From the IMG/VR virus record IMGVR_UViG_3300002061_000003: DNA of 64,000 nucleotides; one strand, written 5' to 3'. Source of the stretch: a virus. Positions 3,035 to 50,987 of the stretch are shown here, one piece after another; within the stretch, counting starts at the first letter, position 1; each line of letters starts with the position of its first letter. Under the pieces are notes generated by a model that was not told the origin of the DNA, searched no databases, and saw nothing but the letters and a program-made list of their open reading frames with translations. Both the position numbers and the translations under genes were made by a program.

Positions 3035-3240
3035 GCGATCTAAGAAATTGTCGTGATTGTAAATTCTGCAATATGTCTCCACATCATATTGAAATGTTCT
3101 GTGTCTGGGAAAAGCATTCAATGCCAGCTCCTGTTTATAGAGCACGTCTTTGGGGTGCAAGTCCTCCGAAAGTTAATCCAGGTAATTACGCTGAAACCTG
3201 CACATTCTTTGAAAAGAAGGAAGAAACCGATGAAGGTTAG
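3031..3240 (+). CDS. Small Cys-rich hypothetical protein
   Basis: CRDCKFC...C...C pattern; ATGA overlap. Confidence 0.6.
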   Translation: MSDLRNCRDCKFCNMSPHHIEMFCVWEKHSMPAPVYRARLWGASPPKVNPGNYAETCTFFEKKEETDEG

Positions 3241-3721
3241 TGTCAGTTTTACAGACGATCAATTGAAGGCTTTGTTGTGGGAGTCAAACCTGATTGAAGG
3301 TATTGATAAGCCCATTACCGAGAAGCAAATTGAAGCATCCAGGTATATTATCGAGACTCAACAGGTTGGCGTAGCTGATTTGTCAAATTGGGTTCTGCTT
3401 TTTCAACCTGATGGATTGCTTCGTGACCAATACAAAATGAATGTTCGTGTAGGTGTTCACATACCTCCAGGAGGTGGGCCTCATATTACAAGTAGGTTGG
3501 AATCTTTGATGATCCAAATGCGTCGTGGTAGGGCATCAGCATATAAATGTCATATCGATTACCTTAACCTTCATCCATTTATGGACGGAAATGGCCGCTC
3601 CGGCCGGATCCTATTACTCTGGCAAGCTTGGCATCATGAGCCTAAGCTGTTTATGGATGCACTCCAGAATGGTTTACTCCATACCTGGTACATGGAAACA
3701 ATGAGACAAAATTCGAGGTAG
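3230..3721 (+). CDS. Fic-domain protein (AMPylase family)
   Basis: Canonical HPFMDGNGRSGR motif; N-terminal SNLIEG matches the (S/T)xxxE(G/N) inhibitory helix. Confidence 0.9.
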   Translation: MKVSVSFTDDQLKALLWESNLIEGIDKPITEKQIEASRYIIETQQVGVADLSNWVLLFQPDGLLRDQYKMNVRVGVHIPPGGGPHITSRLESLMIQMRRGRASAYKCHIDYLNLHPFMDGNGRSGRILLLWQAWHHEPKLFMDALQNGLLHTWYMETMRQNSR

Positions 3722-3723
3722 AT

Positions 3724-4446
3724 ATGTCTGCTAGTAGAAGAATAAAGACGTTGTTGCAGGCTTTAAGCAAGCCTAATCATGTGCTTGTATCATCGGTACA
3801 TGCAACAAAGTGCGTCATCGCAGATACTTCAGGTATTGCAGCTGAACAATGTTCCAAAGACGAACGTGAAGCTATGATGGCGGCTGGATACATAAGGCTT
3901 TTCAAAGAGCCTAAACCTGATATGATCCAGCATATCATAACCGAAAAAGGTCGTAAAACTGCTTTGAAGCCTCGACATGTTAGAGGTGAAAGAAGGTTCT
4001 CAGGTTCAACGTCTAGATCTCCCTTCGAACTGTTGGTTGAGAATAGTCGTATGAAGCAATATTTTACCGCTGATCAAATACAAGCTGGTAACATGTTCAA
4101 AGAGGACTTTATGCGTGCTCAAAATGATGATGGCTATCCGACAACAATGAACTGGAATACTGTAGGTGCATTCGTCGACACAGGCTTTAAAGGCACTCAA
4201 GGTGTTGTACCTAGTGGTTGGTATAAGCAGGAATGTGCATCACGTCTAGAGCAAGCGATCCAGTACTTAGGTGTTGGACTATCAGATGTGGTCTTACTTC
4301 ATATATGCTACGAGCGTGGCCTTGAAGAGACAGAGCAAACGCTTGGATGGTCAGCACGATCAGCAAAAGTTGTGCTACGCATAGCCCTACAACACCTTAC
4401 CCGCTTTTATGGCAAAGATGCCACAAGCCCTATGATCGGAGAATAA
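3724..4446 (+). CDS. GafA/GafZ-like (DUF6456) transcription activator/antiterminator
   Basis: 'SPFELL...AGNMFKEDF..AQ...T.NW' and C-terminal 'RLEQAIQYLGVGLSDVV...GLEETEQTLGWSARSAKVVLRIALQHLTRFY' match the GafA C-terminal DUF6456 pattern as I recall it. Confidence 0.75.
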   Translation: MSASRRIKTLLQALSKPNHVLVSSVHATKCVIADTSGIAAEQCSKDEREAMMAAGYIRLFKEPKPDMIQHIITEKGRKTALKPRHVRGERRFSGSTSRSPFELLVENSRMKQYFTADQIQAGNMFKEDFMRAQNDDGYPTTMNWNTVGAFVDTGFKGTQGVVPSGWYKQECASRLEQAIQYLGVGLSDVVLLHICYERGLEETEQTLGWSARSAKVVLRIALQHLTRFYGKDATSPMIGE

Positions 4447-4447: not shown

Positions 4448-5038
4448 ATGCTTGTCTCACTGTTTACAGATGCATCGGTTAACCATCAAAAGCAATCAGG
4501 TGGCTGGGGAGCTTGGGCACGTTCTGAAAGAGGTAAAGTTTGGGATGGCGGCATGATTACACACCATCTCACGTCCTCAAATGAGGCTGAGGCGATTGCT
4601 GTTCTTCGTGGCGCTGCTTTGGCGCATCATGTCGGTATTTTAATGCCAGGTGATACCGTTATTGTGCAGCTGGATAATCAACATGTTTGCCGTAGTTTGA
4701 ATTGGAGCTGGGAGAAGGGTAGTCCTATGATGCCTCAAATACGTCCAGACTATTCTCGCACAGAGCATGAAATCTCAACCTTGGATGCAATCACCGAATT
4801 TGAATTGAGGCATAACATCCAGATTGCAAGTCGTTGGATCAAAGGTCATACTAACGGTGAGACACCCCGTACATACGTAAACAATGCTTGTGATTCACTT
4901 GCCAATAAAGGTCGCAAGATGGCAGAGAAATACTTTGCCCATCCTAAAGGTCAACATCGTATGTTCGTACACAATCGTGAGAAGGTTGAACGTGCAGAAC
5001 GTAAGGCCGAAATTATCAATTGGGGTGCTGTCAGATGA
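4448..5038 (+). CDS. rnhA: Ribonuclease HI
   Basis: FTDAS, GGWGAW, SSNEAE, VQLDN, WIKGH and NNACDSLA motifs. Confidence 0.9.
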   Translation: MLVSLFTDASVNHQKQSGGWGAWARSERGKVWDGGMITHHLTSSNEAEAIAVLRGAALAHHVGILMPGDTVIVQLDNQHVCRSLNWSWEKGSPMMPQIRPDYSRTEHEISTLDAITEFELRHNIQIASRWIKGHTNGETPRTYVNNACDSLANKGRKMAEKYFAHPKGQHRMFVHNREKVERAERKAEIINWGAVR

Positions 5039-32935: not shown

Positions 32936-33008
32936 CGGGATCAACCGGAGACATCAAGCTGATCCCGCTCTAAGGGGGTAGACAACCACACCTACCCCCT
33001 TTTCTTTT
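32936..33008. terminator. Paired hairpins where the two genome arms converge (bidirectional terminator)
   Basis: CGGGATCA/TGATCCCG and AAGGGGGTAG-ACAACCACAC-CTACCCCCTT followed by TTCTTTT. Confidence 0.85.
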
Positions 33009-33405
33009 ACTTGAAGAACCGATCCTTCAAGATATTCAAGACTTGTGGACCTGCTAGACCTGCTAAGATAAACAGGATAAGCAATTCCCAAAGGCTAGGT
33101 AGAGATTTTACCTCCCAGCCTTCTAAAGGCAAAGCACTTACAATGACAAGAGCTGCCAAGTAGAGAAGGCAAATGCCTTGCAGGACGCTTTGCATCAAGA
33201 CCGTCATAAATGGTCTTCGATCGCTTAACACCGCTTCGGTCTCGAAAGCTGCAATTCCCAAGTCCGTATCAGCAGCTGTCTTAGCCATCTGAACATCGCC
33301 ACGAACTTTAAATTGATCCGTCTGGGTTTTGAAATATCCACCGGCAATGTCAACCAATGGACCAGCTAAGAATTTACCGACGATTGAAAGGAATGTACCA
33401 ATCAT
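33007..33405 (-). CDS. Holin-like membrane protein (GTA 3TM holin type)
   Basis: Amphipathic N-terminus, 'SDRRP', two C-terminal TM helices; downstream of the endolysin. Confidence 0.6.
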   Translation of the reverse strand: MIGTFLSIVGKFLAGPLVDIAGGYFKTQTDQFKVRGDVQMAKTAADTDLGIAAFETEAVLSDRRPFMTVLMQSVLQGICLLYLAALVIVSALPLEGWEVKSLPSLWELLILFILAGLAGPQVLNILKDRFFK

Positions 33406-34496
33406 AGTGTCTTCCCCCTTTGATGATCGTCAATACGTGCTGCGCGTGCTTTTTGAAGTTGGAACCAAAGATAGAGGCTCACCACACCAAGAATAGCACA
33501 CACAACGTACTCAGGACTGGCAAAGCGATCAATAAGCTCTTTACCTCGATCCCAGTAGGTGGCGCCGAGGATAGAGATAGTACCCAGAATCCCAGCACCA
33601 GAACCTCGATCACTAGCAGCAACAATTCGACTATTACCAAGATCCTTACCAGACGCATCTTGTCTCTCTTCGCTGAGCGGTCTTTTCCATCCTGCGCTGA
33701 TGGACTCGCCAAGAGATTTCCATGTTTCCCCACCGACTCGTACCTTTCCATCTACGGTAAGAACCATATCTGCTTGATAGTCTCGGACGCCAGCTTCGGT
33801 TAGGGTTCCGAAGTCTCCATCGACCGATCCAATACGGTAATTACACTGTTTCAAACGTGTCTGTAGTTCGAAGACATCAGAGCCTTCAGAACCAAGACGG
33901 AGAAGAGGTGTTGAACTGCTGTCACCCAATACAGCTTCAGCGCGTGCCAGATACTTACGACGGTCAGCCATGCCATTGTAGCCACCGTTGATACGTTTCG
34001 TAGCCCCCTTGAAATCACCACGATCGGCAAATTCATTCAGGTTGCGAGTTTCCCAATACCAGAATGCACTCAAGATAGCCCAAGGGAACTCGGCTAGCAA
34101 TTCTGGGTTCTGCTCAAAGTCTGGGCAATCGGGATAAAGTTTGCGGCACCACTCTGTGAACTCAGCATGGTTAGCTCGTCCAGTTGTTTGGATAATGCCA
34201 TGACCTCTAAATTTCTTGCCATCACCTTTCTGGGTATTACCCAAATCTCGGCGACCCTCATAAGCACGTCCTGAAGCATACTCAACAGTCGTTCTAAAGC
34301 CTGCAGCTTCATGACATGTTTGTGCCAAGAAATAAGTCTGCCTAGCAATAGTATTGACTTCGAATTGAACCATAAGCTCGTTGATGACTTCCGCCATCTC
34401 TCGAAGAATATATGATTGCCTTGCCTTCTCAGGATGCTTGTTTGAGAGTTTTGGTGCGATGGCCCTCAACATCGATTCGGTGATTTGTTTCATCAT
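33402..34496 (-). CDS. Endolysin: GH19 catalytic domain, PG-binding domain, C-terminal TM helices
   Basis: FLAQTCHE, YEGRRDLGN..KGDG..FRGHG.IQ.TGRAN; LRLGSEG...LQ.RL...VDGDFG..TE..VR.YQ. Confidence 0.9.
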   Translation of the reverse strand: MMKQITESMLRAIAPKLSNKHPEKARQSYILREMAEVINELMVQFEVNTIARQTYFLAQTCHEAAGFRTTVEYASGRAYEGRRDLGNTQKGDGKKFRGHGIIQTTGRANHAEFTEWCRKLYPDCPDFEQNPELLAEFPWAILSAFWYWETRNLNEFADRGDFKGATKRINGGYNGMADRRKYLARAEAVLGDSSSTPLLRLGSEGSDVFELQTRLKQCNYRIGSVDGDFGTLTEAGVRDYQADMVLTVDGKVRVGGETWKSLGESISAGWKRPLSEERQDASGKDLGNSRIVAASDRGSGAGILGTISILGATYWDRGKELIDRFASPEYVVCAILGVVSLYLWFQLQKARAARIDDHQRGKTL

Positions 34497-34514
34497 GTCT
34501 CCTAGCCTTGCGGC

Positions 34515-34919
34515 TTAATCTACTTCTACGTATAGGTCTATCTCAATGGGACGAAGTGGAATAATCCCGAAGAGTCTTGGCGACCAAAAAACCTGGTAAT
34601 GATAGTCTTGGGTAATGCAACGAGCAGCCCAATGATCAATAGACCAGATAGCATATGGAAGTCCATTATCCTTATACCTGAATTCGGCTGTATCGGAACA
34701 TGGTGTAGAACCGTCGACAGGTCGAATATGTTCCGAGTATTTGATAATGGGTATCTTTAGCCATTGCTTCATTGGAAACGTTCGATACGATTTGACTTGC
34801 GCACCGTTAATAGTAACCAAAGAAGGGTTAAAAAGTATTTTAGGAGGAATAGCAATCCAAACTACCAGTACGGTAGCTATAACTGCGAGACACCAGAATA
34901 CAATCTTTAGCTTGTTCAT
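34515..34919 (-). CDS. Membrane-anchored hypothetical protein in the lysis cassette
   Basis: N-terminal TM helix. Confidence 0.7.
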   Translation of the reverse strand: MNKLKIVFWCLAVIATVLVVWIAIPPKILFNPSLVTINGAQVKSYRTFPMKQWLKIPIIKYSEHIRPVDGSTPCSDTAEFRYKDNGLPYAIWSIDHWAARCITQDYHYQVFWSPRLFGIIPLRPIEIDLYVEVD

Positions 34920-35167
34920 TTGAAAATAACACTCCTATAACTCCAGATAATACCCAGCAAGCTAAGTACAACCGACCCCAACACTGATACCCCAGTTACA
35001 AGACGTTTCCGTTCTCTCGTTTCCATGGTCTTCTCAAAGTTTTCCAGCTCTTTCTGCAAATCGGAAATGCTAGTGGAAGCACTGTCTAATTTGAATTCCA
35101 GCTGTTTGACTTTTTCCTCCAATAAAGCAATCACAACCTCATGGTTGCGCGTAGGTTCTTCACCCAT
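34916..35167 (-). CDS. Coiled-coil protein with C-terminal TM helix (holin/antiholin-like)
   Basis: Heptad region then VSVLGSVVLSLLGIIW. Confidence 0.65.
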   Translation of the reverse strand: MGEEPTRNHEVVIALLEEKVKQLEFKLDSASTSISDLQKELENFEKTMETRERKRLVTGVSVLGSVVLSLLGIIWSYRSVIFK

Positions 35168-35182
35168 GTCTTGTCTCCTAAA

Positions 35183-35890
35183 TTACGACGTGGCAGCACC
35201 CGTCGCTATATAATGCAAGCCAACTCTCACGTCGCCTGCTGTGAATGATCCCCCGTTAGATGTTAGGGTTACGGTCGTGACGCCGTAATTCCCCAAAGGT
35301 CCAATAAGCCCTTGGTTGTTAGAGCCCGTCGCGATTCCTAAAGAACCACCAAACCTATCTTGGGTGGAACCATCACCCACATCGTAATCTGTTGCACCTG
35401 TAATAGCATCAACCACATAAACAGATACCCCCAAAATAATACACTGGTTAGGAAATGCGACGGTAGTTGTAACCGAAGCACCCGACAACCCTGCAAGTAA
35501 CTCAGAGGCAATTTCAAACTGGGTAAAAGCACCATTGGCTGTTGATGCTGCGCCTGAAACAACAGTATTCCAGGCTGATCCATTATAGCGAATGTCGATG
35601 GCTTCATCTAATACAAAAGCCTTCCAACCGTTTCGAGGAGTTAAAAACACCCACCCCGCATTCTGATAAACGGCAATTAAGTCTTCAGCGCCAGTCCAAT
35701 CTCCTGTGGCTCCGCTGGCAACGATGTATCGGTCCCCTTCGGCCGGTGATCCTGGAGGCGTATTCAAGCCTCGATCAATAACCGCCAACTGCGTTGCAGC
35801 ATCCAACTTGAACATGGCCTCGTTAAAGGTAACATGCTTTTGAGATTGAGACTGTTCCATCTCTGTGATATTTAGTTCAGGTGTAGCCAT
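35183..35890 (-). CDS. DUF2793-family tail fibre/accessory protein
   Basis: 'Q.QKHVTFNEA..LDA..QLAV..R....PP.SP.EGDRYIV..GATG.W.G'. Confidence 0.85.
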   Translation of the reverse strand: MATPELNITEMEQSQSQKHVTFNEAMFKLDAATQLAVIDRGLNTPPGSPAEGDRYIVASGATGDWTGAEDLIAVYQNAGWVFLTPRNGWKAFVLDEAIDIRYNGSAWNTVVSGAASTANGAFTQFEIASELLAGLSGASVTTTVAFPNQCIILGVSVYVVDAITGATDYDVGDGSTQDRFGGSLGIATGSNNQGLIGPLGNYGVTTVTLTSNGGSFTAGDVRVGLHYIATGAATS

Positions 35891-35900
35891 TGTACGTCTC

Positions 35901-38900
35901 CTAGAATCTGAAGGTTATCTGCTCACGACGTCCAATACCTCTGCCGAACGATTCAGAGATTTGATATACCTCAAAATCGAGTGTCGTAACAGATGCACCA
36001 AAGTCAGTCGTTTGCTGAGCCGATGTATAAGTGGTTGTGGTTGATTCCGCTATTTCAATTGTTCTTAGAATAGTTGTGCCGTCAATGTCGTAGACATCAA
36101 TCTCGTATGCCTCAACCGTCTCAGATAGAGGTACATCCCCACCATCCCACACTTCTCCTCCAATCCTGGATCGGCGAATCCATTCTAGCAGGATATCGTT
36201 GGATGCCGCGTCTTTAGTGGCAGACACAGAACACGGCGATAGAGGTCTGAGGCCTATAGCTCTGGGCGTAAATTGAGTTGTGATATATGTGCCTGAGCTT
36301 TGAGCATCTGATGTAGGTCCGTAGCGCCAGAACAAATCCAGATCTTTAAAGCTTGCAGGCATATTAGACTGTCTTAAGGTCTCTTCCAGAACAACAAAGG
36401 TAGCACCCGCAACTAGGTTATCAGAAATAGCATGTTCGGTACCCAATTGTCCTCTCAGAAGTCTGCTTAGATCATAAGTGTTAGGCGATACAAGATCTGC
36501 CTGGCTCCACTGAACAATCTCCCATTCACCCACTTCAGGGTTATATAGGGCTCCTAAGTTTGCACCTGTAAACATGTCCAAGTCATCAAGTGATTGAAGA
36601 GTTCCGAATGTATTCAAGGTAACTTGCAGTACATTGCCATTATCGAAATAGCCATGTTCAGCAGGACCGAAGTCTAGAGTAGTTACACCCATAACAGTTG
36701 GAACGGTAATATCGAGATCAGCCGTATACGTTGTACCTGTTGAAGATCTGAATACTGAGACACTTCCAGGCCATGGAGCAGCTGAAGATGCGATCCAAGG
36801 TGCATAAGGGGTCTCAGCGCCTGTAAGTAGCGGCAGATCTAGGAATACAGTTTTAGACAAGCCTACGATAGTATCATTGCCGCTTGTACGTCTAACGGAT
36901 GGGCCAGGAGACCTACTGTAAGTCGCAGCTTCAGTGCGTACAGCGCTTGAAGGTCTGTAAAATTCATAACCCAACTCTTCTAAGCGATAATCAGCACTGC
37001 GTCCATTGGCTGTCAAATTTACGACATCTGATGCATCTAAGGCAAGTAGACTTGGAGGCAATTTAAACTCACCACGTTCCCTCATGACATGCGCATCAAT
37101 CAAAAGGGTATCAGCCACACTCTGTGCTTGAGTAAACGACATAACAACATTGAAGCTGCTTTCGGATACATTTTTACCTGCATTTACTCTGCGACGTGCT
37201 GGAACACTTGAGACCTTGTAGTTATAGTCATCGGTGATAAACTTCACACGAACTTCGCCCGGGCTTTCCGTAAGCTGACCTCTTGTCAGTTTAAAGGTAC
37301 CCTGCAATGAATCATCAGGATTGTCGTACACCAAATCATCTTCGGTAAGTTCAATAACCGAGTCAGCACCTCTATGCTTAAACTTGATAACGCCTTCAGA
37401 TTCAAAAGCATCGAACGAGTATAAAGCCATGAGTGGTTGGATGATGTCTCGAGCACTCAACGTGTCGCTTACAACATATCCCGTAATCAAACCATGCAGT
37501 TGAGACGCATCGATAGTAACATCAAAGTCCGCAGTAGCTTCTTCTACAAAATGTCTTAGCGTAGGCAAACCCCAACGACCATTACCCCAATGACCAAGTT
37601 CCCAGTTATCCCCATCAGACCAGACACTTGCCTGGAAAGGAAATTCAGGAAAAGGTCTTGCATCCCATGTCCATAGATACATACGATCGACATCAAGCAT
37701 TCGACCTGCATATACACCTGAAGATGGGTTATTAGTATTATCAGCCCAGAATTCATATTGAGCAATGTTGAACTGGCGAGCCATGAAATCATCACGCGTA
37801 CCTGAAGAGAAGTAAGGCGTAAAGCTTTCGGATGATTTCGGATCGACAAATACGTTTGGCTGGTTTGCTCCCTTATCTACGCATGGGCAACCCACTTCAG
37901 TAAACCAGATAGGTTTTGATTCTGGTACCCAAGCCGTAGGAGATGCATCACGCACACCTCCAGGACGATTATGGTGAGCATTGCTCCACCAGTTTTCCAA
38001 GTCTTTAGGTCTGAATACCCAATCTTCACCATGGGCTGTATCATCAATAGGAGTTCTTACCTGGTTGTAACGATCAGCAGCTGTAGCGTAGAACCAGTCA
38101 TAACCTTCACCACCCTTGATATTACCCTTCAAGTAGTTAAGGTCATAGATTGTCCGGTAAAGCGCTCCATCCAGGTGATTATCACCATCACGCCAATCAG
38201 CCAATGGCATATAGTTGTCAATGCCAATTACATCGATGTTAGAATCGGCCCACAAGTCATCGAGATGGAAGAACACATCGTTAGAACCATCCGAAGGCCT
38301 ATGATTCGTCCACTCTGACCAATCAGCTGCGTAAGTAACGGTTGTTCCAGATCCTAGAATAGCCTTTACGTCAGCCGCTAAAGCAATCCATTGGTCAACG
38401 CTCGGATAGTCTCCATTGTTATCCCGGATACGATTTAACGAAACCATTTCGGAACCAATAATAAAGGTGTCCACGCCTCCAGCGGCTGAACAGAGATGAG
38501 CGTAGTGAAGGATCATCCGGCGGAAAGACCATTCAGCTGGCCCTGTATATGGAATAGTTTCTCCATCCCAAGCACCAAAATCTGTACGGGCAGCATTGCC
38601 GAAGAATGTGTTTACTTGTGTACGTGCAGCAGCTGTTTGATCATCGGAATCATCTTCCAAAGTGATACGACCTCTCCATGGGAAAGCTGCTTGATTAGAT
38701 CCGCCATACGGATCGGTTAAAGTGTTATCAGAAGGGATATCCATAAGAATAAACGGATAAAAAGTAGCAGTCCAGCCACGATCATCAATATCTTGAATGG
38801 CCTCATAGACGGACAAGTCACTTGGTGCTCCTCCGAGATTTGGTCTATCTTCGTCATCTAAGCTAACAACCTCTGCACTAGCTCTTTCGATACCTGAAAC

Positions 38901-39926
38901 TTTCCAAGGGAAAGAATCGGTTGTGATTGAAGTACCTGGAACATTACCAAAAATGTCCAGAGCTGTAGGTTCAACGATAGGCGTATCCGTAGACCGTGTC
39001 GTTTTAATTGCAGCTTCGACCTTAGGTCTTAACTCGCAATCACCTACACGAAGATCAGTACCATGCCATGCCACCACCAATGAGATGTTTTGCATGTTGC
39101 TGCATGTATCGCCGAGTTGATCCATAGAAATTTCCCAGTCTGTACCATCTGACAGGGAGTGATTGTTTTGAGTCTCCGATTCTTGGGTTTCAGTGTTATG
39201 TGCGAAAACTTCTGTCGTAGCATATACAAATTCACCCGCAGACGGAATGACTGTAGTTGCCGTAATTTTATCTTCATATTCGGCCAAAGAGTCTTCAGTG
39301 CTTCGGTACACTTCAACATTTAGCTGAGGGATTCGATTCCCGTAATTCTCCAAAAGCATTTCCTCAAAGACAACATACGCGATGCCTCTGTAAGCAGAAG
39401 TAAATTCCGCACCCTCTACTTCTAGGATTTTAGAATCCCGGTTTTGAGTTTCAGTGCCTTTATATTTCCGAATGGTAAATGAAGCTTGATCTAAGATGCT
39501 GCCATCAGCCCAAATACGATCAATACGTTGGACAACACCTTCACAGACACCTACTGCGAACGAGACGTAGTATTTGTATTCTGTGCTGGTTGAGGTGACT
39601 CCACCTCCTCCACCCTTACCACCACTTTGAGTTGAGCTGGTGGTGATGATTTCTTCACGGTATTTCGTAGTCCAGATGACGTTACCTGCAACTCGAGTCC
39701 TCCCAGTTAATCTATGAATAGGTGTGCCTTCAGAAGAGCCTTGGAATCTCACTTCATCTAGACGTGGACCTTCTTGACTAATGTTAGTGCTTTGTGCGAA
39801 CAAGGCATTGTCAATAATGCTGCCTACAAGTCCAGCACCGGCTGCAAATGCTGCAGTCGCGAACGCCGAGAATCCAAAGCTGCCTGCAATTGCATTAGCA
39901 GCACTTGCCAAGATGATACTTGCCAT
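35901..39926 (-). CDS. GTA-type tail hub/megatron (RcGTA g15-like; TIM-barrel and Phage-tail_3 domains)
   Basis: 'EGPRLD', 'SAYRGIAYVVFE...YGNRIPQL', 'IPSAGEFVYATT', 'FIIGSEM', 'IDNYMPLADWRDG', 'WTWDARPFP.FP', 'NW..GHW.NGR'. Confidence 0.92.
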   Translation of the reverse strand: MASIILASAANAIAGSFGFSAFATAAFAAGAGLVGSIIDNALFAQSTNISQEGPRLDEVRFQGSSEGTPIHRLTGRTRVAGNVIWTTKYREEIITTSSTQSGGKGGGGGVTSTSTEYKYYVSFAVGVCEGVVQRIDRIWADGSILDQASFTIRKYKGTETQNRDSKILEVEGAEFTSAYRGIAYVVFEEMLLENYGNRIPQLNVEVYRSTEDSLAEYEDKITATTVIPSAGEFVYATTEVFAHNTETQESETQNNHSLSDGTDWEISMDQLGDTCSNMQNISLVVAWHGTDLRVGDCELRPKVEAAIKTTRSTDTPIVEPTALDIFGNVPGTSITTDSFPWKVSGIERASAEVVSLDDEDRPNLGGAPSDLSVYEAIQDIDDRGWTATFYPFILMDIPSDNTLTDPYGGSNQAAFPWRGRITLEDDSDDQTAAARTQVNTFFGNAARTDFGAWDGETIPYTGPAEWSFRRMILHYAHLCSAAGGVDTFIIGSEMVSLNRIRDNNGDYPSVDQWIALAADVKAILGSGTTVTYAADWSEWTNHRPSDGSNDVFFHLDDLWADSNIDVIGIDNYMPLADWRDGDNHLDGALYRTIYDLNYLKGNIKGGEGYDWFYATAADRYNQVRTPIDDTAHGEDWVFRPKDLENWWSNAHHNRPGGVRDASPTAWVPESKPIWFTEVGCPCVDKGANQPNVFVDPKSSESFTPYFSSGTRDDFMARQFNIAQYEFWADNTNNPSSGVYAGRMLDVDRMYLWTWDARPFPEFPFQASVWSDGDNWELGHWGNGRWGLPTLRHFVEEATADFDVTIDASQLHGLITGYVVSDTLSARDIIQPLMALYSFDAFESEGVIKFKHRGADSVIELTEDDLVYDNPDDSLQGTFKLTRGQLTESPGEVRVKFITDDYNYKVSSVPARRRVNAGKNVSESSFNVVMSFTQAQSVADTLLIDAHVMRERGEFKLPPSLLALDASDVVNLTANGRSADYRLEELGYEFYRPSSAVRTEAATYSRSPGPSVRRTSGNDTIVGLSKTVFLDLPLLTGAETPYAPWIASSAAPWPGSVSVFRSSTGTTYTADLDITVPTVMGVTTLDFGPAEHGYFDNGNVLQVTLNTFGTLQSLDDLDMFTGANLGALYNPEVGEWEIVQWSQADLVSPNTYDLSRLLRGQLGTEHAISDNLVAGATFVVLEETLRQSNMPASFKDLDLFWRYGPTSDAQSSGTYITTQFTPRAIGLRPLSPCSVSATKDAASNDILLEWIRRSRIGGEVWDGGDVPLSETVEAYEIDVYDIDGTTILRTIEIAESTTTTYTSAQQTTDFGASVTTLDFEVYQISESFGRGIGRREQITFRF

Positions 39927-40438
39927 TAGTCTCCAACTCCTGGAAAGCTATATGCATACATATTACGTGAACGCCATACTTCCCAAATATCTTCTTCCAC
40001 GACATTGTGTTTGATGTAAGCATGAATAATGCTATGGTTGTACGACACAATACCGCAATGTTTAACAAGGCTATTAGACCTCATCCTAATCATCAATACG
40101 TCACCAGGTAACAAGTCTTTCAAAGGCTTTGCAACCAGATACTTGTTAGCGGCTTCTAACATAGGTTCACCTCCTTGAGCATTCACTTCAGCCCAATATG
40201 GTGTATAGTTAGGCGGACGTTCTGCATCAGCCTCGTAGATGTCTTTCCACACACCCCTAAGCAAACCCAAGCAATCACATCCAACATGCTTTTTACATGC
40301 CTGATGTACATAGGGAGTGCCAAGCCAGTCACGTGCGTATGCAATTACATCAGCACGGCTAGTAGGTTTTAGTGGATTAGAATACTGAGCCACCGCTGTT
40401 ATCGTCCTCCGAAGAAGCTTGCCTAAGAATGATATCAT
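39926..40438 (-). CDS. NlpC/P60 cell-wall peptidase (RcGTA g14-like); start uncertain
   Basis: 'ARDWLGTPYVHQAC...GCDCLGLLRGVW', 'PGDVL', 'KHCGI', 'IHAY'. Confidence 0.9.
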   Translation of the reverse strand: MISFLGKLLRRTITAVAQYSNPLKPTSRADVIAYARDWLGTPYVHQACKKHVGCDCLGLLRGVWKDIYEADAERPPNYTPYWAEVNAQGGEPMLEAANKYLVAKPLKDLLPGDVLMIRMRSNSLVKHCGIVSYNHSIIHAYIKHNVVEEDIWEVWRSRNMYAYSFPGVGD

Positions 40439-41288
40439 TCCCTGGAATTAAATTAAAACCCCTGAAGTTAATCAGGTTATCGAATCTCGCGAAGCAAGTT
40501 GATGCAGCTCCATCACATCCAACCGTTACGCTATATGCATCCCCAACTTCAATATCATATGGCATTGGTTCCCAAAGTAGGATAGTATTGAAATCGCCTT
40601 CTTGGACATGAGTCTTGATTTCCATCTGAGCGCCCGCATTAGCACCACTTGTCCACGTAATGACTCCACGACTAAACCATCCATCAATGGTTGCTTGAAT
40701 AGCTACCGTATCTGATCTGAATAGATTCCGACCATTTACAAAGGTAACTGTTGAAGCAACTGTATAGTTAATGCCCGAACTAGATGTTCCAGCAAGATTA
40801 ACACCGCACTTAGGTGTACCAACATCAACCCTGCATGTAGGTGTATATGTATCACCAGTCTTTTGGTTCAACGCATGTGCTAGACCCCTTACCTCAGCAA
40901 CAAAGCCAAGGTTACCTCTTGAGATCTCACCTACAGATCCGGCCAATATGATAGAACGTAAAGATGTGTCGCGCCAGTCAACCAAATAGCAAGTAATCAA
41001 AGCATTGTCATATTGACCTGAAGCAATATCATCCTCATCGATTGAGGCTTGGTTTAAAACACCCATCACATCCATGTTGTCGATATTCAAACCTGTAGAC
41101 TGTGCGATAGCAGATGGATTCATACCAGTTTCGGCTTTATATGTAACCGAGTCGAAAGTCAGATCTTTGTCGTGGTTTGTGAATCCAAATACCTGCGCAT
41201 CACGTCTCACAAGTTGCCAACACAGCGCATGATGTGTAGCACCACCTTCCAAGTCTGTTTGCATTTGGGCTGGAATTAAGTCTTTCAT
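40377..41288 (-). CDS. DUF2163 baseplate hub protein (RcGTA g13-like)
   Basis: 'WQLVRRD..VFGFTNHDKDL', 'GLNIDN', 'C...G..KCGVNL', 'GCD....TC..RFDNL.NFRGF..IPG.D'. Confidence 0.92.
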   Translation of the reverse strand: MKDLIPAQMQTDLEGGATHHALCWQLVRRDAQVFGFTNHDKDLTFDSVTYKAETGMNPSAIAQSTGLNIDNMDVMGVLNQASIDEDDIASGQYDNALITCYLVDWRDTSLRSIILAGSVGEISRGNLGFVAEVRGLAHALNQKTGDTYTPTCRVDVGTPKCGVNLAGTSSSGINYTVASTVTFVNGRNLFRSDTVAIQATIDGWFSRGVITWTSGANAGAQMEIKTHVQEGDFNTILLWEPMPYDIEVGDAYSVTVGCDGAASTCFARFDNLINFRGFNLIPGNDIILRQASSEDDNSGGSVF

Positions 41289-41911
41289 ACCCGAACCTCA
41301 ATCATAGAGATATCAGGAATTTGACCTTTTTCAAAATGTGATAGGTTGATTGTCAGCGAATCTGATTGGAATCGTACAGGTACATCGAATTCGTAACCAG
41401 TCGTAATGGCAACTCCATTTCCTGGAGCAGACGAAAAGACAATTTGCCCTGTCGTAGAGTCAATCAACCAGCCAGTTAACTGCTCTACGCCGTCAAAAGC
41501 GAGCCTGACGGTCCCATCAACAGGTTTGCTGATTTCACGCTCCTGAGAACCTTGAGCATCTGCGTAAGTTTTGATAAGCTGGAATACTGTGGATGATCCG
41601 TCTCCAGTGGCGAGAGGCTGATCTGTTGCTGCGACGGTTTCCAAAGGTCTGCAGGATTTATAATCACTCCAGTCCTTAAAGCGAAAACCATACAAAGCAC
41701 CTTCCCTAGCTTCAAAGAAAGCCATGATGTCATGAACTTCATCCACAGACTTAATGCCGTAAGCAGCATTATAAGCACGTCTGGATTGCGACCAAGGGCT
41801 ATTACGCTCTTCATGGCCAGATCCCAATTCAACAATTTCCGTCTTACGGATTGGACCACCAGTCGATCCATAAGAAATCTTCTGGGAAAATTGAATTTCA
41901 TGAAAGTTCAT
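41285..41911 (-). CDS. DUF2460 distal tail protein (RcGTA g12-like)
   Basis: 'FHEIQF...SYGSTGGP.RKT.IV...SG.EERN..W...RR.Y', 'FFEAR.G.LYGFRFKDW.DY', 'FDVPVRF'. Confidence 0.95.
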   Translation of the reverse strand: MNFHEIQFSQKISYGSTGGPIRKTEIVELGSGHEERNSPWSQSRRAYNAAYGIKSVDEVHDIMAFFEAREGALYGFRFKDWSDYKSCRPLETVAATDQPLATGDGSSTVFQLIKTYADAQGSQEREISKPVDGTVRLAFDGVEQLTGWLIDSTTGQIVFSSAPGNGVAITTGYEFDVPVRFQSDSLTINLSHFEKGQIPDISMIEVRV

Positions 41912-44900
41912 TGGTTACGGCCTCCACGCGAAGCTACTCGGCTCGCAAGTGCTGACATTTGAGATTCGGACTTCTGGAAGCTCTTGGCATCAGTTCCAGG
42001 TGGGAAGTTAAAGTTGATTGTATTGCCTCCACCAGCACCACCAGCATTGATAACACCCAAGTCACCCGAACTAGTACGTGCTAGAGGTAGGATACCTTCA
42101 TCACCAGCTTCTCCGCCAATAGTGACTCCACCATCTTGCATGCCAAACGCTGTAGGACCTGTAAGCAATGCTCCCTTACGTGCGAATTTCACATCAGCAG
42201 CGCCATTAGAACCAAATGCATTGCCTTTACGGGAGAATAGTGTACCGAAGAAGTTTCCTCCAGCACCTGAGAATAGTTGGCCAAAACTAGCACCTCCACT
42301 ACCTCCAATACCCAAACCACCAAAGATGGAATTAAGTAGAGGTTTAATGACTGCAAGTTCCAGGAAGCTTGAAATCAACTCACTGGCAACTTTCTTACCA
42401 ACATCAGCTAAAGCATTCAAATCTAACTTACCTGATACCAATGCATCAGCCATCACATCTGCAACTTGACCCCAACCATTTGAAATCGTATCTTGGACAT
42501 TTTGGTGAAGGTCTGCAATCTGTTGAATAGCACCTTCTTGGGCAGAGATCTCGTTAATGCGGTCGCGGAATTCACCAACACGTTGATTAACCATTTCCTG
42601 AGAGATACCCATCTTCTCAAGAGCTGACCTATACTGTGCAATTGCCTGAGCACCTTGCAAACCACTTTCAGCACCTAAATCACCTAGATCTAGGCTAGTC
42701 AATTGTTCAGCACGTTTTAGAAGGTCTTCCAATTGGCTATTAGCCGATTGCAAAGCATTCTTCATATTGTCGACACCGCCAGCAGCAGCATCAAAGGCTC
42801 CGATGCTAGCTCTGAAGGCTTTTACCTTTTCATTAACCTCTTCTTGTGTTAGGTTAGCACCTGCAAGACTCTTGCGATAGGCTTCAACCTTATCAGATAC
42901 AGATAGGTTTTGTTGCAAGATTGCAAAGGCCTGAGAACCTTGAGATGCCAATGCTTGCAGCTGCTGAAGTTTGGTAAACTGTTCGTTGAGGTCTTTCAGG
43001 TCATCAGAAGCACTTGAACCTCCGCCACTCTTCTTACGACCTCCACGACCTTTGGCAAGTGAAGCTTGGTATCTGGTGTTGGCTTCGATGTTGGCTTCAA
43101 GAGCTGTACGACGTTGATCTAGGGCTGCAGTGATTTGAGCTGCATCAACACCATCGGCTTTCAATGTAGATTCCAAGCGAGACAGGTTATCTGTAACACG
43201 CTCAGCATTTTTAAATGCCGTGAATGCATCTTTACCACCTGCCAGAGCTTCAGTTTCCCTGCGAAGTCTATTCGTTGCGTCTCCAGCCGCTTCAAGGGAG
43301 GCATCAATACGTGCCTGACCAGCAACATTATTCAATTGGAATAAAGCACCTGTCAAAGCTGTAATAATGGCTTCAAGACGTTCACCTGTTACACCAGCAG
43401 CCTCCAACCGTGATCTAAAGGTTTCGATCTGTTGGGTATTGGCAAATTGTTCTTGCAGACGTCTGACAGCATCTTCACCTTCCTGGATGGCTACAGCTTC
43501 AGCAGTCATGCGTTGAATCTCTGCAGTCACTTCAGCAATGGTGGCATCCATTTGTTGATTGCGTACTGTCTCATCAAGTTGACGCATTTGATCAGCAAAT
43601 TGTGCTGTCATCTGCTCAGCAACTGCAATATCAACCCCAGCACCGATCAGCTTATTGCGGAATGCATCGATAGCATCCGACTGTTCGAATGATGCCTTCA
43701 AGTTATCGACTGCTTGAGCTCCATCACCCAAAGCTTCGATTTCCATACGCATACGTTCAATTTCTTTAGTGCTGTCTGCTAGTGCTTTAGATTGAGCAGC
43801 TTCAGACAACTTTTCAAGAGCCGCAGAAAATTCAGCTGTCCGAGCAATAATGGCTTCTTCTTCAACCTTAGCCTTTTCAAGTGTGCTACGGAACTTCTCA
43901 ATAGCATCTGTTTGACCGAATGCAGCTTTCAACGCTTGCAATGCACCCTCAGATTGACCCATAGCGGCAATCTCTTGGTGGATACGTTCGATACGTACAA
44001 TAGCATCTTGTTCAGCAGCTGAAACAACCCGACTTTCCGCATCAGCTCTAGCTCGCGCAGCATTTTGCTGGGCTTGCTGAATAGATGTCAAGGTTTTAAG
44101 TTTGGAAGTTAGCTCATCATATTCGGCATTCAATCGAGCAATATTGCTTGCCCGACGATCCTGTGCATTCCTTTTGCTATGGCCACCAGATTCAGGAGGA
44201 TTGGCAAATAGTTCTCTTTGTTGTTCCAGTTGCGATTGAACCAAAGCCAATCGATCGGCAACTTGAGCTCGTAGGATACCTGTTGTTTGGACTTCAGTTT
44301 GTTGCGCACGTCTTTGAGCATCGATATAGGAATCGATTGTATCAACCAAAGCCGTTTGCTCTTCATTGACACCTGCCATTGCAACGCCTGCAATAGCCAA
44401 ACCACCTGCAAGTCCAATTGCAGCTCGAGTAACCAATGCCAACACGGCTCCTGCAGGGTTAGCAAGCATAACTGCATTCAAGCCTGCCATAGCAATTGTA
44501 GCTGTTCGGATGATCTTTACAAGTTTGAGGAAACCTGCTAAAATACCTGGACCAGCAATTACAAGCAATGCTCCAGTTACACCTGCAGCAGCAAATGCCA
44601 ACACATCCATATTGTCAGCAAAGAAGTTAATTACACCTGTCAAACTTTCTACAGATGCTTGGAACAACTGACTGATACCGAATGTTTCATCAAATGCCCG
44701 ATTGAAGTTTGTCTGCGAGTTAGCCAGGCGATTCAACGATGCTTGCAAGCCTACAACACGTTTAACCTGATCAGCACCTACAGCAGCTCTAAATGCGGAT
44801 GCGAATTTAGGTAAGAACTCATCTGACATGACTTCGCCAGCTTTAAGCATCTTATTCAACTCGGCAGTCGTCACACCCATAGACTGAGCTGCAATGTTAA

Positions 44901-45861
44901 ATGCCCCAACTAGGCGGTCACCTAACTGCCCTCTAAGTTCTTCAGACTGGACAATACCTTTCGACATAATCTGTTCGAATGCTTTTAGAACACCGTTCAG
45001 CTCTTCGGTGCCAATACGGAACTTTGCAGCACCAAACAAGACATCTTCAAAAACCTGATCTACTTGAGCTCCCGCTAATGCGGTACCTGCAGCTGCTGCA
45101 CTAATCTTGGCATATGCATTAGCAACTCCGATAAGCTCGGAACCTGTATCGTCAGATAATTGTTGAATTCGGGCAAATGCATCAGCAGCAGCTTCAGTTG
45201 ATCCTGTTACAGATTCCAAACGTGCATTGACTTTGTCAAGTTGGATAGCCGTTTGAATTGCACCTTGACCAAAGGTACTTAAGGTAATAAAACCTGCTGT
45301 GATACCGCCAATAAGACCAACCATTGCAAGGTTAGACCGATTTGCGATAGCAGTCAAGGCTGTGATGCGAGCTCCAACACCTGACAAAGGACCTACAGCA
45401 AGTACGGATGCGCTTGCCAAGTTCTGCATCAACTCCGTCATATTGAAGAGTGATGGAGGTACTTGATCAGCTGCTTGTTTGAAACGGTTTAAAGAACGTT
45501 GCGAACGTCCTACATCAGCTTGGAACTTACTTTGAGCACGTTGGAAATCAAGTGTTGTGAGTGTTCCGGAAGTCACACTTTTAGTATATTCACGGAATGC
45601 TCGGGAAGAGTCTGTAAGCAACCGTGTAGGTGCTCCAGCTTTACGTACCGACTCATTGAAACGCAGAGTCTGTTGCAAAGCGGATAACGCTGCTTTTTCT
45701 TGACGACGTAATGCGGCTTCGGTCTTCTTGGATGCCGCGCTTGAAGCGGAAGCAGCAGAGTTAACAGCTTGACCGAACTTGACGACATCATTTACGGATG
45801 AGCTCAGACGTCTGGTATCTACACCCAATCCGAAATTGATATCGCCAAGATTTAAAGCCAT
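41908..45861 (-). CDS. Tail tape measure protein
   Basis: 1317 aa Ala-rich helical protein; 'QIMSKGIVQSEELRGQLGDRL'; C-terminal 'GEAG.EGILPL.R...G.LGV'. Confidence 0.93.
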   Translation of the reverse strand: MALNLGDINFGLGVDTRRLSSSVNDVVKFGQAVNSAASASSAASKKTEAALRRQEKAALSALQQTLRFNESVRKAGAPTRLLTDSSRAFREYTKSVTSGTLTTLDFQRAQSKFQADVGRSQRSLNRFKQAADQVPPSLFNMTELMQNLASASVLAVGPLSGVGARITALTAIANRSNLAMVGLIGGITAGFITLSTFGQGAIQTAIQLDKVNARLESVTGSTEAAADAFARIQQLSDDTGSELIGVANAYAKISAAAAGTALAGAQVDQVFEDVLFGAAKFRIGTEELNGVLKAFEQIMSKGIVQSEELRGQLGDRLVGAFNIAAQSMGVTTAELNKMLKAGEVMSDEFLPKFASAFRAAVGADQVKRVVGLQASLNRLANSQTNFNRAFDETFGISQLFQASVESLTGVINFFADNMDVLAFAAAGVTGALLVIAGPGILAGFLKLVKIIRTATIAMAGLNAVMLANPAGAVLALVTRAAIGLAGGLAIAGVAMAGVNEEQTALVDTIDSYIDAQRRAQQTEVQTTGILRAQVADRLALVQSQLEQQRELFANPPESGGHSKRNAQDRRASNIARLNAEYDELTSKLKTLTSIQQAQQNAARARADAESRVVSAAEQDAIVRIERIHQEIAAMGQSEGALQALKAAFGQTDAIEKFRSTLEKAKVEEEAIIARTAEFSAALEKLSEAAQSKALADSTKEIERMRMEIEALGDGAQAVDNLKASFEQSDAIDAFRNKLIGAGVDIAVAEQMTAQFADQMRQLDETVRNQQMDATIAEVTAEIQRMTAEAVAIQEGEDAVRRLQEQFANTQQIETFRSRLEAAGVTGERLEAIITALTGALFQLNNVAGQARIDASLEAAGDATNRLRRETEALAGGKDAFTAFKNAERVTDNLSRLESTLKADGVDAAQITAALDQRRTALEANIEANTRYQASLAKGRGGRKKSGGGSSASDDLKDLNEQFTKLQQLQALASQGSQAFAILQQNLSVSDKVEAYRKSLAGANLTQEEVNEKVKAFRASIGAFDAAAGGVDNMKNALQSANSQLEDLLKRAEQLTSLDLGDLGAESGLQGAQAIAQYRSALEKMGISQEMVNQRVGEFRDRINEISAQEGAIQQIADLHQNVQDTISNGWGQVADVMADALVSGKLDLNALADVGKKVASELISSFLELAVIKPLLNSIFGGLGIGGSGGASFGQLFSGAGGNFFGTLFSRKGNAFGSNGAADVKFARKGALLTGPTAFGMQDGGVTIGGEAGDEGILPLARTSSGDLGVINAGGAGGGNTINFNFPPGTDAKSFQKSESQMSALASRVASRGGRNQ

Positions 45862-46082
45862 TATCGACCCCTAAATGGTTTACGACCGCCACCAGATTTC
45901 GATTTAGCAGCGGCTCGTTTTTTCGCTTCTTCCTCATCTTTCCGCCTGAGGTGAAAATACGCTAACCAGCGCGCAAACTTATCAGGCTGCAGAGAAAGAA
46001 TTTGACCTTCAACGTCTATTACTCCGAGCTGTTCTCCGAGGAAGTAGGCGTCGTGGAGTCTTGGGTTTCTTCGGAGTTTCCC
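45861..46082 (-). CDS. -1 frameshift extension (gpT-like) of the tail assembly chaperone
   Basis: In-phase slippery G GGA AAC (plus-strand 46076-46082); the -1 frame is open to TAA at 45861: KLRRNPRLHDAYFLGEQLGV...FARWLAYFHLRRKDEEEAKK. Confidence 0.85.
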   Translation of the reverse strand, partial: GKLRRNPRLHDAYFLGEQLGVIDVEGQILSLQPDKFARWLAYFHLRRKDEEEAKKRAAAKSKSGGGRKPFRGR

Positions 46083-46405
46083 TCCTCACCGAGAATGTCG
46101 ATATCGGTCAGTTCGGTAATCTTCGTGTTCAGCGTAGCCATGTCTTTACCGAATGGCATTGCTTTGATCAGGTCGATGTCAGCATCGTCGAAGACACGAT
46201 CATTTGTGCCTGGAACGAATGCATAACGTACTACCATCGAGGCGGCTGCAAACGCCCGATCTTCAGCTGCTGCTTGTTGCGTTTGAAGAACCACTTCCAT
46301 GGGCGGTTGGCGTAGTTCAATTTGCGCGCCAAAGAATTCCATCTCGAGCGATTTGGGTTTCGCATTGGCAAAGATTTGAGCCCTTAGTTCGTCACGTACG
46401 GACAT
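46019..46405 (-). CDS. Tail assembly chaperone (gpG-like)
   Basis: Between tail tube and TMP genes; carries the slippery site. Confidence 0.85.
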   Translation of the reverse strand: MSVRDELRAQIFANAKPKSLEMEFFGAQIELRQPPMEVVLQTQQAAAEDRAFAAASMVVRYAFVPGTNDRVFDDADIDLIKAMPFGKDMATLNTKITELTDIDILGEEGNSEETQDSTTPTSSENSSE

Positions 46406-46481
46406 GTTAGTCTCCTAGAAGGTTGATGTTGATGTGGTTGTTGGTCTCACCCGTTAGGGAAAGACCTTTCTTAGTAAAGGA

Positions 46482-47516
46482 TTACACTGTTGATGGTGTA
46501 CCCGAGCCCTGAAGCTGAACACTGAATTCGTTCATAACTTCGAGGCCGCCAGCAAGCGTGATTTCGGTCACAATTACATTGCCCTCTTCACCGCTGGTAC
46601 CGTTACCCAAGTACTGAGCATCGATCACAGTACTCTCTTCCCAAGCTGTCAATGCAATCTTGACGGCTTCGTTCAGAGTTGAAGTAACGGCGTGGTTCCA
46701 AGTAAATGCCTTGTAAAGCAATTCCTCGTCAGGTACCGACAACTGGAAGGTAACGCTTTGCTCTTCAGGATCACCCACGTTACCCGATTCACTTTCAGCT
46801 GTAATGCGGAAGAATCCACGAGCAACAGACTGGTTTGAACCATCAGGGTTGAGTTCGATGATCAGCTCATTCCGGGCACGCAGATCTGCAAGGTAACCGT
46901 AGGTACCATTGTAGAAACCTGACATTTCCAAATTCAGCTGCTTCAGGCCGTAATCGAAGATTCGGAAACCACCATTACCAGAAGCCAAACACATGTCTGT
47001 CGTATCAACACCTGCAGCTGTTTGAGTCAACGTGAACGAGTTCGCACCACAGAGATCTGAAGTTGGGAAGAAGGAACCAGTGACTGTAACTGGCCCTGTA
47101 ACAACGTAACCAGAAGCAAAGGTAACACGTCCAAACAAGAAGTCAATGCTTTCAATGTTGCTAACCGCAACAGCTACGCCATTGTCTTCAAATGTAGGAG
47201 TCACGGAGCGATCCCAGATTTGCCGTGCAGAAGCATCGATCTGATATTCTTGACCTGTTGTTTGAGACATAGCCTCGTCGGTCATAGCTGTAGTAGCCCC
47301 TTGACGCTTCAAGGTAGCCACATAACCTGCAAAACCCTTATACAAGGCATTGGAAGTAATAGACCAGCCAATCAAACCTGGTTGAGTTGATTGAAAATCT
47401 TGGCCGAAGATCGTATCGACGATCTCACCGGCTTCGTTGCGAAGTTCACCTGTATTACCTGGAAGAGTATTCCAAGAGGTGCCACTGTCATCCGACAGGC
47501 GGATTCGTTTTGCCAT
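46482..47516 (-). CDS. Major tail (tube) protein
   Basis: Position; duplicated tube-type segments (TIFG...GLIGWSI; DTTD...GLKQLNLEMSG). Confidence 0.8.
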   Translation of the reverse strand: MAKRIRLSDDSGTSWNTLPGNTGELRNEAGEIVDTIFGQDFQSTQPGLIGWSITSNALYKGFAGYVATLKRQGATTAMTDEAMSQTTGQEYQIDASARQIWDRSVTPTFEDNGVAVAVSNIESIDFLFGRVTFASGYVVTGPVTVTGSFFPTSDLCGANSFTLTQTAAGVDTTDMCLASGNGGFRIFDYGLKQLNLEMSGFYNGTYGYLADLRARNELIIELNPDGSNQSVARGFFRITAESESGNVGDPEEQSVTFQLSVPDEELLYKAFTWNHAVTSTLNEAVKIALTAWEESTVIDAQYLGNGTSGEEGNVIVTEITLAGGLEVMNEFSVQLQGSGTPSTV

Positions 47517-47528
47517 AGCATCAGCTCC

Positions 47529-47969
47529 TTATAGCGATTTCCGGTGAGTACCGGATGACGGGTTAATGATGAGTTGGAAATTGAGGCTGAAAGATGGTCT
47601 GCGGTTCTCATCGTAACCGAGAAATGCTGCCTCTGAAAGCATAGACACAGATACCCAGATATTCCCGTTTATTGTCTGGCTATCTAATCCAAGCAGTGCG
47701 TCTTTGACTTCTAATACCTTATCCGTTAATTCCGTGTAATCGTTTTCACTGCCACGGATGATTGCTTGAACCGTAGGATAGTCAACTAGCCACGCTGGAT
47801 TAGGCGGACGACCTCCGGAATCATATAGAGTAATGCAACGATCAGGCTTATCAGGCCTTTTCGAAACATTAATAGACCAGTCAGACTGATCTTCAAGCTC
47901 GGTGATGTTAAATCTACCGACATCTGCTGTAACGAGCAGGTCTTTGATATCCATAGCACGACTAGACAC
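47529..47969 (-). CDS. Tail terminator / minor capsid-like protein
   Basis: 'PDKPDRCITLYDSGG', 'PTVQAIIRG', 'LGYDENRRP.FSLNF'. Confidence 0.75.
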   Translation of the reverse strand: MSSRAMDIKDLLVTADVGRFNITELEDQSDWSINVSKRPDKPDRCITLYDSGGRPPNPAWLVDYPTVQAIIRGSENDYTELTDKVLEVKDALLGLDSQTINGNIWVSVSMLSEAAFLGYDENRRPSFSLNFQLIINPSSGTHRKSL

Positions 47970-49132: not shown

Positions 49133-49135
49133 GCG

Positions 49136-49468: not shown

Positions 49469-49502
49469 AATATCCTCCGTGCTTGGAGATCGCCACTATC
49501 CG

Positions 49503-50492: not shown

Positions 50493-50524
50493 TGGTCTTC
50501 CTTTCGTTCGTGCCTAAAAGGCGG

Positions 50525-50947: not shown

Positions 50948-50987
50948 GAGGCATATCCTTCTTTTTCGTTAGGTTACAGAAACCGCA

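Follow-up and report, generated by a model that had tools for sequence, protein, structure and literature searches.

What does a protein related to GafA and GafZ, the activators of bacterial gene transfer agents (GTAs), do in the genome of a phage? The question is raised by a plus-strand gene (3724..4446) that opens with ATG and encodes 240 residues, and the original prediction had answered it with a GafA/GafZ homolog serving as late activator or antiterminator of a 27-kb late operon. In our analysis the homology is solid, and the protein probably serves the phage itself, as the switch of its delayed (virion) genes, a reading drawn from homology and context only. To the more specific proposal, namely that it works as an RNA polymerase-associated factor of the GafZ/GafA-Cx type on the virion-gene promoters called PL1 and PL2 below, we would give, by analogy with the known members of the family, a probability of roughly one half.

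The window, meaning the whole stretch of DNA analysed (64,000 nucleotides), makes up nearly the whole of a metagenomic contig of 64,203 bp (ENA ERZ27298442) and belongs to a tailed phage, a siphovirus with GTA-like tail genes; a megablast of 25 kb of it against 50,697 phage records gave no nucleotide match. At its end, an ORF encoding GGxGxD RTX-type repeats is left open (63714-64000, plus strand) and an open frame enters at its start (2-280, plus strand), which fits a near-complete circular or permuted genome. The early and replication genes lie on the plus strand from about 60.7 kb, across the window ends, to 33 kb, and include the Fic-domain gene, the DUF6456 gene discussed here, RNase H, a DUF3854 primase-helicase, ligase, helicase, exonuclease and Sak4, followed by the preQ0 pathway, PolA, RNR, and ThyX. 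Within this strand, QueC, QueD (PTPS), QueE (radical SAM), and GTP cyclohydrolase I are consecutive (21305-24381, plus strand), and by their sequences would make up a preQ0/7-deazaguanine pathway, presumably for DNA modification. A perfect TTGACA-16-TATAAT promoter stands at the edge of a very AT-rich stretch (62286-62560) with no ORF after it, and this region could act as an origin or in early control. The scanned ORFs of the window include no recognisable sigma factor or RNA polymerase.

The 27-kb late operon of the original prediction is real, since the minus strand carries one uninterrupted block of 27.3 kb (33007..60335) with the lysis, tail, head, and packaging genes, among them those for the endolysin, the tape measure, a GTA-g15-like and other tail proteins, capsid, portal, TerL, and TerS; this is the presumed regulated unit. 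Its 1340-residue tail protein is 39-44% identical to GTA-g15-like proteins of Rhodobacter, Roseobacter, Dinoroseobacter, Paracoccus, and other phages, and 41-48% identical to the copies in roseobacter genomes. These tail matches, together with the Rhodobacterales relatives of the DUF6456 protein, point to an alphaproteobacterial host, probably a member of the Rhodobacterales. As a side observation, the genome of Roseovarius sp. MBR-6 (G004, which holds L035) has ten g15-like tail matches, of which four or five are near full-length; they are spread over about seven places on six contigs, and this multiplicity suggests several prophages besides the GTA.

The gene itself is packed between a Fic-domain gene (3230..3721, plus strand), ending 2 nt upstream, and an RNase H gene (4448..5038, plus strand), beginning 1 nt downstream, both co-transcribed with it, and no promoter of its own stands out. 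The small Fic/DOC protein carries an HPFxDGNGR motif.

The family assignment is firm. The Pfam profile PF20057 (DUF6456) scores 102.4 bits on the protein, against a cut-off of 26.3 and with an E-value of 2.8e-29, so the profile check proposed for the original prediction came out in its favour; the match joins residues 98-230 (4015..4413, plus strand) to profile positions 7-135 of 136. In a 117-sequence alignment, all six invariant columns of the family (G183, C195, E204, R212, K215, and L218 in the window protein) and 17 nearly invariant ones are kept, and the C-terminal helix-turn-helix (HTH) signature G-WSARS-K-VLRIAL, of the sigma region 4 type, is present; the C-terminal string quoted earlier, GLSDVVLLHICYERGLEETEQTLGWSARSAKVVLRIALQHL, does occur in the translation of 3724-4446. 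On these sequence grounds the protein is a genuine DUF6456 member, with a match far past chance. The same profile also matched in the Caulobacter vibrioides control genome. Elsewhere, NCBIfam gave just sub-threshold sigma-70/ECF region-4 matches over residues 165-226, among which the ECF sigma-70 class model (TIGR02937) reached 14.8 bits against a cut-off of 42.9, with the region-4 part alone matching, and PHROGs returned one weak family of unknown function.

The AlphaFold2 model, built on that 117-sequence alignment (mean pLDDT 82.9), divides the protein into two domains. The first is a predicted N-terminal winged helix (residues 1-83; 3724..3972, plus strand), mostly with pLDDT above 86, which aligns with GafA residues 126-207 and resembles MarR-type regulators at Z-scores of 6.5-7.9, values that the tool's own notes describe as common; the small Rhodopseudomonas protein 2jtv, at Z 7.8, is in the same common range. 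The equivalent of the GafA central region 87-226 is thus present, and from alignment and model together residues 1-83 appear to correspond to the omega-binding central region of R. capsulatus GafA, as defined in PMC9638019; the background cited in the original prediction, that GafA contacts the omega subunit of RNA polymerase, agrees with that paper, in which the central region does the binding. Residues 84-95 are disordered in the model and form a linker between the domains, and residues 135-165, in the middle of the DUF6456 domain, have low model confidence. The second well-modelled part (residues 165-233; 4216..4422, plus strand), which includes the invariant W-SARS-K-VLRIAL helix, is a sigma-70 region-4-like HTH according to both structure matches and conserved columns, and aligns with the C-terminal part through which GafA and GafZ bind promoters. 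It superposes on CnrH (4cxf) with Z 9.0 and an rmsd of 1.4 A over 67 residues, followed by SigW, SigD4, SigR, and other ECF sigma region-4 chains. Foldseek also placed SigD4 (3vfz) at a TM-score of 0.86 with a non-significant E-value, and nothing in its search of the model reached E <= 0.001; a sequence search against solved structures gave chance matches only. The antiterminator Q21 (6p1b) is not among the 50 structural matches listed, a list filled by sigma region 4 and MarR chains.

Comparison with cellular GafA defines which form of the family the phage encodes. An exhaustive search of 1.8 billion cluster representatives returned 1023 relatives at E <= 1e-3, the closest at about 43% identity, and a scan with one genome per species found relatives in at least 594 genomes. 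Among the best 80 of these at least 594 genomes, the named ones are nearly all Rhodobacterales (Sulfitobacter, Ruegeria, Roseovarius, Phaeobacter, Paracoccus), and the nearest cellular relatives are Rhodobacterales GafA. The two cellular relatives that were inspected are chromosomal GafA-type proteins of 378 and 392 residues with a C-terminal DUF6456, and one of the two genes, that of Lentibacter, adjoins lipoyl synthase (lipA) like canonical gafA, whose synteny with lipA is described in PMC5026251. Residues 228-378 of the Ruegeria GafA are 40% identical to the phage protein, and residues 126-392 of the Lentibacter GafA align with it end to end (30% identity, E 1e-24). These alignments, with the PF20057 match, make the GafA/GafZ homology of the original prediction solid, and the first-to-last-residue alignment means that the phage protein equals GafA minus its first ~125 residues. 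It begins at the equivalent of residue ~126, and the N-terminal DnaA-like HTH of full-length GafA is absent from it. By its sequence, then, the window protein is a form of GafA without the N-terminal DnaA-like DNA-binding domain, that is, of the GafA-Cx/GafZ type.

In the split GafY + GafZ system of Caulobacter and the Hyphomicrobiales, this domain is supplied by GafY, from a small gene of its own beside that for the DUF6456 protein. However, there is no DnaA-like (GafY) gene beside the DUF6456 gene, whose upstream neighbour is the Fic-domain gene, and a profile of the GafA N-terminus made from 40 sequences found nothing in all reading frames of the window (best E 0.57), so that no GafY-like partner is apparent, keeping in mind that short divergent HTH proteins could slip past such a profile. 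Two points had been passed over in the original prediction: that the protein is without the DnaA-like domain which GTA-cluster activation by GafA needs, and that phage homologs of GafA are already in print.

The best matches to the window protein lie in phage-like contigs, and their gene contexts are informative. One homolog, P0009 (33% identity), is in a 63-kb contig (L090) whose TerS is 56% identical to that of the window phage and whose gene order is the same as here, with a 414-residue gene, a small gene, DUF6456, RNase H, and DUF3854 primase, so that the DUF6456-RNase H pairing is common to both. P0005 (43% identity) comes after a Fic gene, and the Fic-DUF6456 pairing of the window recurs in the relative L005; the 45-kb contig of P0006 also encodes primase, DnaB, and ligase. 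In the 30.8-kb IMG/VR prophage L008, the homolog follows primase/helicase genes and directly precedes HNH-TerS-TerL-portal-protease, and in L009, a viral contig of 74 kb, the gene upstream of it encodes a RusA-type resolvase. The L008 slot is the one that Q occupies in lambda, and in lambdoid phages Q follows RusA; the positions of the homologs in L008 and L009 may be seen as analogous to that of Q. No IMG/VR relatives of the window TerS were found. In L090 (1785-1830, minus strand), the called TerS ATG at 1813 falls inside the conserved late promoter, and therefore that gene start is probably mis-called.

In a maximum-likelihood tree of the DUF6456 domain, calculated with a quick search, P0005, P0006, P0009, the window protein, and four proteins of unknown context form a long-stem clade (SH-aLRT 99), apart from chromosomal Rhodobacterales GafA, and this separate phage clade argues for long-term use by phages. 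The branches of the RDJLphi1 homolog gp38 and of that of L009 are very long, and where they fall in the tree is unreliable. Few cultured phages have a homolog, namely RDJLphi1, RDJLphi2, and RDJL6 and, weakly, Dinoroseobacter phage R4C; one freshwater metagenomic phage has one as well.

The promoter-like sites that the original prediction placed at 60405 and 52509 are there. PL1 (60405..60443, minus strand), upstream of terS, consists of AAAAACCCTC followed by TTGACA-17-TATACT, and PL2 (52509..52547, minus strand), before the scaffold/protease-capsid genes, has the same 14-mer and then TTGATT-17-TATAAT; both are candidate targets of the protein. They match the sigma-70 consensus at 11 and 10 of 12 positions, respectively, and, being near-consensus by sequence, should not need an activator and may fire unaided. 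The PL1 core is kept with one mismatch at the terS promoter of L090; promoters related to PL1/PL2 are also found on the plus strand in this phage group, and no IMG/VR relatives of the promoter pattern were found. The exact 14-mer common to the two, overlapping the -35 box, is AAAAACCCTCTTGA. It was considered as the site of a phage-specific factor, an idea that was dropped after a 26-nt pattern was met in eight contigs lacking protein similarity. This pattern, AAAAACCCNCTTGACAANNNCCCAAA, occurs in eight metagenome contigs (L091-L098) that share no proteins with the phage, and in most of them it is followed by TGGTATAAT; by chance one would expect some 0.03 matches, as roughly estimated for a collection of about 3e11 bases, and the sites look, from their sequence, like very strong cellular promoters. 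The 14-mer, which we take to resemble the CCTC-TTGTCA context of E. coli rrnB P1, is probably a generic strong-promoter or UP-like feature.

How would the protein act on such promoters? Published work on the family offers a model. GafZ has its site between -35 and -10 and passes through terminators together with RNAP-NusAGE (PMC11150451), and the background cited in the original prediction, that GafYZ both activate and antiterminate the Caulobacter GTA cluster, is correct by the same source. GafA-C binds promoter fragments holding the -35/-10 region, and GafA-Cx, which is dimeric, alone activates the gafA promoter (PMC9638019). In the GafYZ system, the recruiting activator is no longer needed once the -35 is replaced by a consensus (PMC11150451). 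In the reading that we prefer, a factor made from the phage early operon would bind at or near the core promoter of the delayed phage units and join the host RNA polymerase there, the likeliest targets being the virion-gene promoters PL1 (60.4 kb) and PL2 (52.5 kb), and would bring about more initiation and/or let the polymerase transcribe the 27-kb virion operon processively, in the manner of GafZ at the Caulobacter GTA cluster. Its mode would be polymerase modification or antitermination after recruitment; given that PL1 and PL2 are already near-consensus and that there is no GafY-like recruiter, action after recruitment is likelier than simple recruitment and would also explain why no GafY-like partner is needed. 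The homology part of the original prediction stands, and its late activator/antiterminator part is a reasonable proposal, drawn from the known function of the family and from the L008 homolog directly upstream of HNH-TerS-TerL.

Several observations speak against a role in the late operon. The gene is not beside that operon and is on the opposite strand, the 14-mer is shared with unrelated contigs, and no strong intrinsic terminator was found in the PL1 leader or inside the operon, where there are weak hairpins only; terminator-like sites in our scan were near the shuffle expectation, and no site in the phage promoters could be attributed to the protein. A small hairpin at the terS 3' end (59403-59388) was considered as an equivalent of the Caulobacter GTA terminator and rejected as too weak. 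There are also other candidate regulators, such as an 85-residue protein (60746-61003, plus strand) that has a C-terminal HTH with sub-threshold HTH_28/HTH_29 matches only and whose gene diverges from the late promoter region, and whatever protein binds the perfect palindrome TGACC-N5-GGTCA (60378..60392), which lies at about +7 to +21 of PL1 and might serve a dimeric regulator as its binding site. The 85-residue protein, or another phage regulator, might own that palindrome.

These observations leave room for a main rival, possible at distinctly lower odds, in which the protein regulates the plus-strand (middle/replication) units and its own operon instead of the virion operon, or might do so besides it, by binding GAC-N7-GTC or TGACC-N5-GGTCA sites at a second set of promoters, here called class B, and/or by read-through of plus-strand terminators. 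The class-B pattern is TTTTGAC-N2-TTG(A/C)GGTC, 17 nt, TATAyT. One such promoter, TTTTGAC-N2-TTGAGGTC, 17 nt, TATACT (63264..63301, plus strand), heads the array containing the DUF6456 gene, which on this account matters since GafA autoregulates and the array would start at about 63266 with a promoter of the controlled type; the others are at 9977-10014, 12958-12995, and 61755-61795, all on the plus strand, and the type is kept in the relative L090, at 17665. At all four plus-strand promoters a GAC-N7-GTC palindrome is centred on a weak TTGAGG -35 box, a layout that would be expected for an activator- or repressor-controlled set and, under this rival, for activator dependence, and the window has seven TTGAC-N7-GTC sites against 1.8 expected. 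A palindrome over the -35 and upstream spacer moreover resembles in position the sites of GafA-C and GafZ (PMC9638019, PMC11150451), and strong terminators do lie within the plus-strand arrays, at 9125-9165 and at 22187-22215, the latter a terminator-like hairpin between queC and queD. Nothing, however, ties the palindrome to the DUF6456 protein over another HTH protein of the phage, the perfect palindrome at PL1 is not kept in L090, and in other phages the homolog is located at the early/late junction.

An effect on the host is less probable still. The original prediction had suggested that the protein might also switch on the host's GTA during infection, and we consider it unlikely that the protein acts on the GafA/CtrA-controlled GTA circuit, by switching on gafA or by poisoning GafA through mixed dimers. 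This idea draws on R. capsulatus GafA-Cx (87-382), which has the same architecture, activates the gafA promoter more than 10-fold and, when overexpressed, raises RcGTA transfer 80-100-fold in the wild type via the chromosomal gafA promoter (PMC9638019). In the phage protein, the presumed recognition helix is also almost identical to the Rhodobacterales consensus, and the nearest cellular relatives, among the best 80 of at least 594 genomes, are Rhodobacterales GafA in genomes with GTA clusters. On the other side, the protein falls in a phage clade with a long branch and is no recent capture from a host; its overall identity to cellular GafA is only 30-40%, and the window lacks the ctrA-like and rcc01866-like companions of the RDJLphi1 homolog. 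In addition, no convincing motif is shared by the phage promoters and the roseobacter gafA (62 loci) or GTA (3 genomes) promoters, which show a loose TTGAC...TTGCG resemblance alone, in another register. We would put it lower again that, by analogy with GafA-Cx, the protein turns on, or alternatively blocks, the GTA during infection of GTA-bearing Rhodobacterales; if it did turn it on, phage infection would lead to a burst of host-DNA transfer via the GTA, and if it blocked it instead, cell resources would be kept for the phage. Least probable of all is that the gene is decaying or without function, or that its product binds DNA for some purpose other than transcription; here one could cite the low-confidence stretch at residues 135-165, but the frame is intact and tightly packed in its operon, all conserved family columns are kept, the identical protein is present on seven contigs, and syntenic homologs at 33-43% identity persist in related phages.

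In the GTA clusters of Ruegeria lacuscaerulensis, Sulfitobacter aestuariivivens, and Phaeobacter sp. J2-8 (L099-L101), we observed a leader hairpin in three of three, GC-rich and then followed by 4-7 T, some 45-75 nt upstream of g1 and after the promoter, with differing stem sequences and conserved pairing. By sequence it looks like a leader terminator, which fits the suggestion that Rhodobacterales GafA also antiterminates.

The kind of gene described here is already known in phages, and the window protein is a rather divergent further member. GTAs are thought to be domesticated phages. The window phage and its metagenomic relatives add a distinct, long-lived clade of the GafZ type in apparently complete phages, without GafY, and the occurrence of this clade in phage genomes supports a descent of GTA activators from phage late-gene regulators. 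Hynes et al. 2016 (PMC5026251) had remarked on a "paucity of phage homologs" of the gene for the GTA activator. The phage genes of the GafZ type also offer simpler natural systems for the action of DUF6456 on RNA polymerase.

Among the known systems, the lambdoid Q antiterminators (lambda Q, Q21) share the proposed logic, in which an early factor engages the polymerase at a constitutive late promoter, and the Q-like slot is held by a DUF6456 homolog in prophage L008. In contrast, Q and the window protein have no sequence relationship, and no promoter-proximal terminator was found in the window; a preprint argues for a structural likeness of GafZ/GafA to Q21 (10.1101/2024.11.20.624540).

Closer in its biology is gp38 of RDJLphi1, a phage GafA homolog already reported (PMC5026251, PMC6363796), with homologs in RDJLphi2 and RDJL6. 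Like the window gene, it lies in the replication-side module of its phage, a siphovirus of ~62 kb, and RDJLphi1, like the window phage, has GTA-like tail genes g12-g15. However, gp38 is full-length with its N-terminal HTH, whereas the window protein is shortened, and the similarity between the two is confined to the last ~40 residues (55% identity). The gp38 gene adjoins a truncated ctrA and an rcc01866 homolog, and the window phage has neither, no homologs of gp36 (rcc01866-like) or gp37 (ctrA-like) being found in the window; the two phages are otherwise unrelated except for RNR, one hydrolase, and the tail genes.

Cellular GafA (R. capsulatus, Rhodobacterales; PMC6363796, PMC9638019) is 30-40% identical to the window protein, with the central and C-terminal regions aligned, but it has in addition the first ~125 residues with the DnaA-like HTH required for GTA-cluster activation, and its chromosomal gene is in the lipA/gua1 neighbourhood, in contrast to the window gene.

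The architecture of the window protein is that of GafZ of Caulobacter crescentus (PMC9632790, PMC11150451), a stand-alone DUF6456 protein without the DnaA-like domain, and both have a C-terminal sigma-region-4-like HTH, with GafZ compared here by description only. They differ in that GafZ works with GafY and IHF, whereas the window has no GafY-like protein; in that PL1 and PL2 have no counterpart of the palindrome that GafZ recognises between -35 and -10; and in that the window shows no clear equivalent of the terminator that GafZ overcomes behind the first gene. Common to both is the presumed place of action, the core promoter of a head-tail gene cluster, which for GafZ belongs to a domesticated GTA and for the window protein to an apparently complete phage genome.
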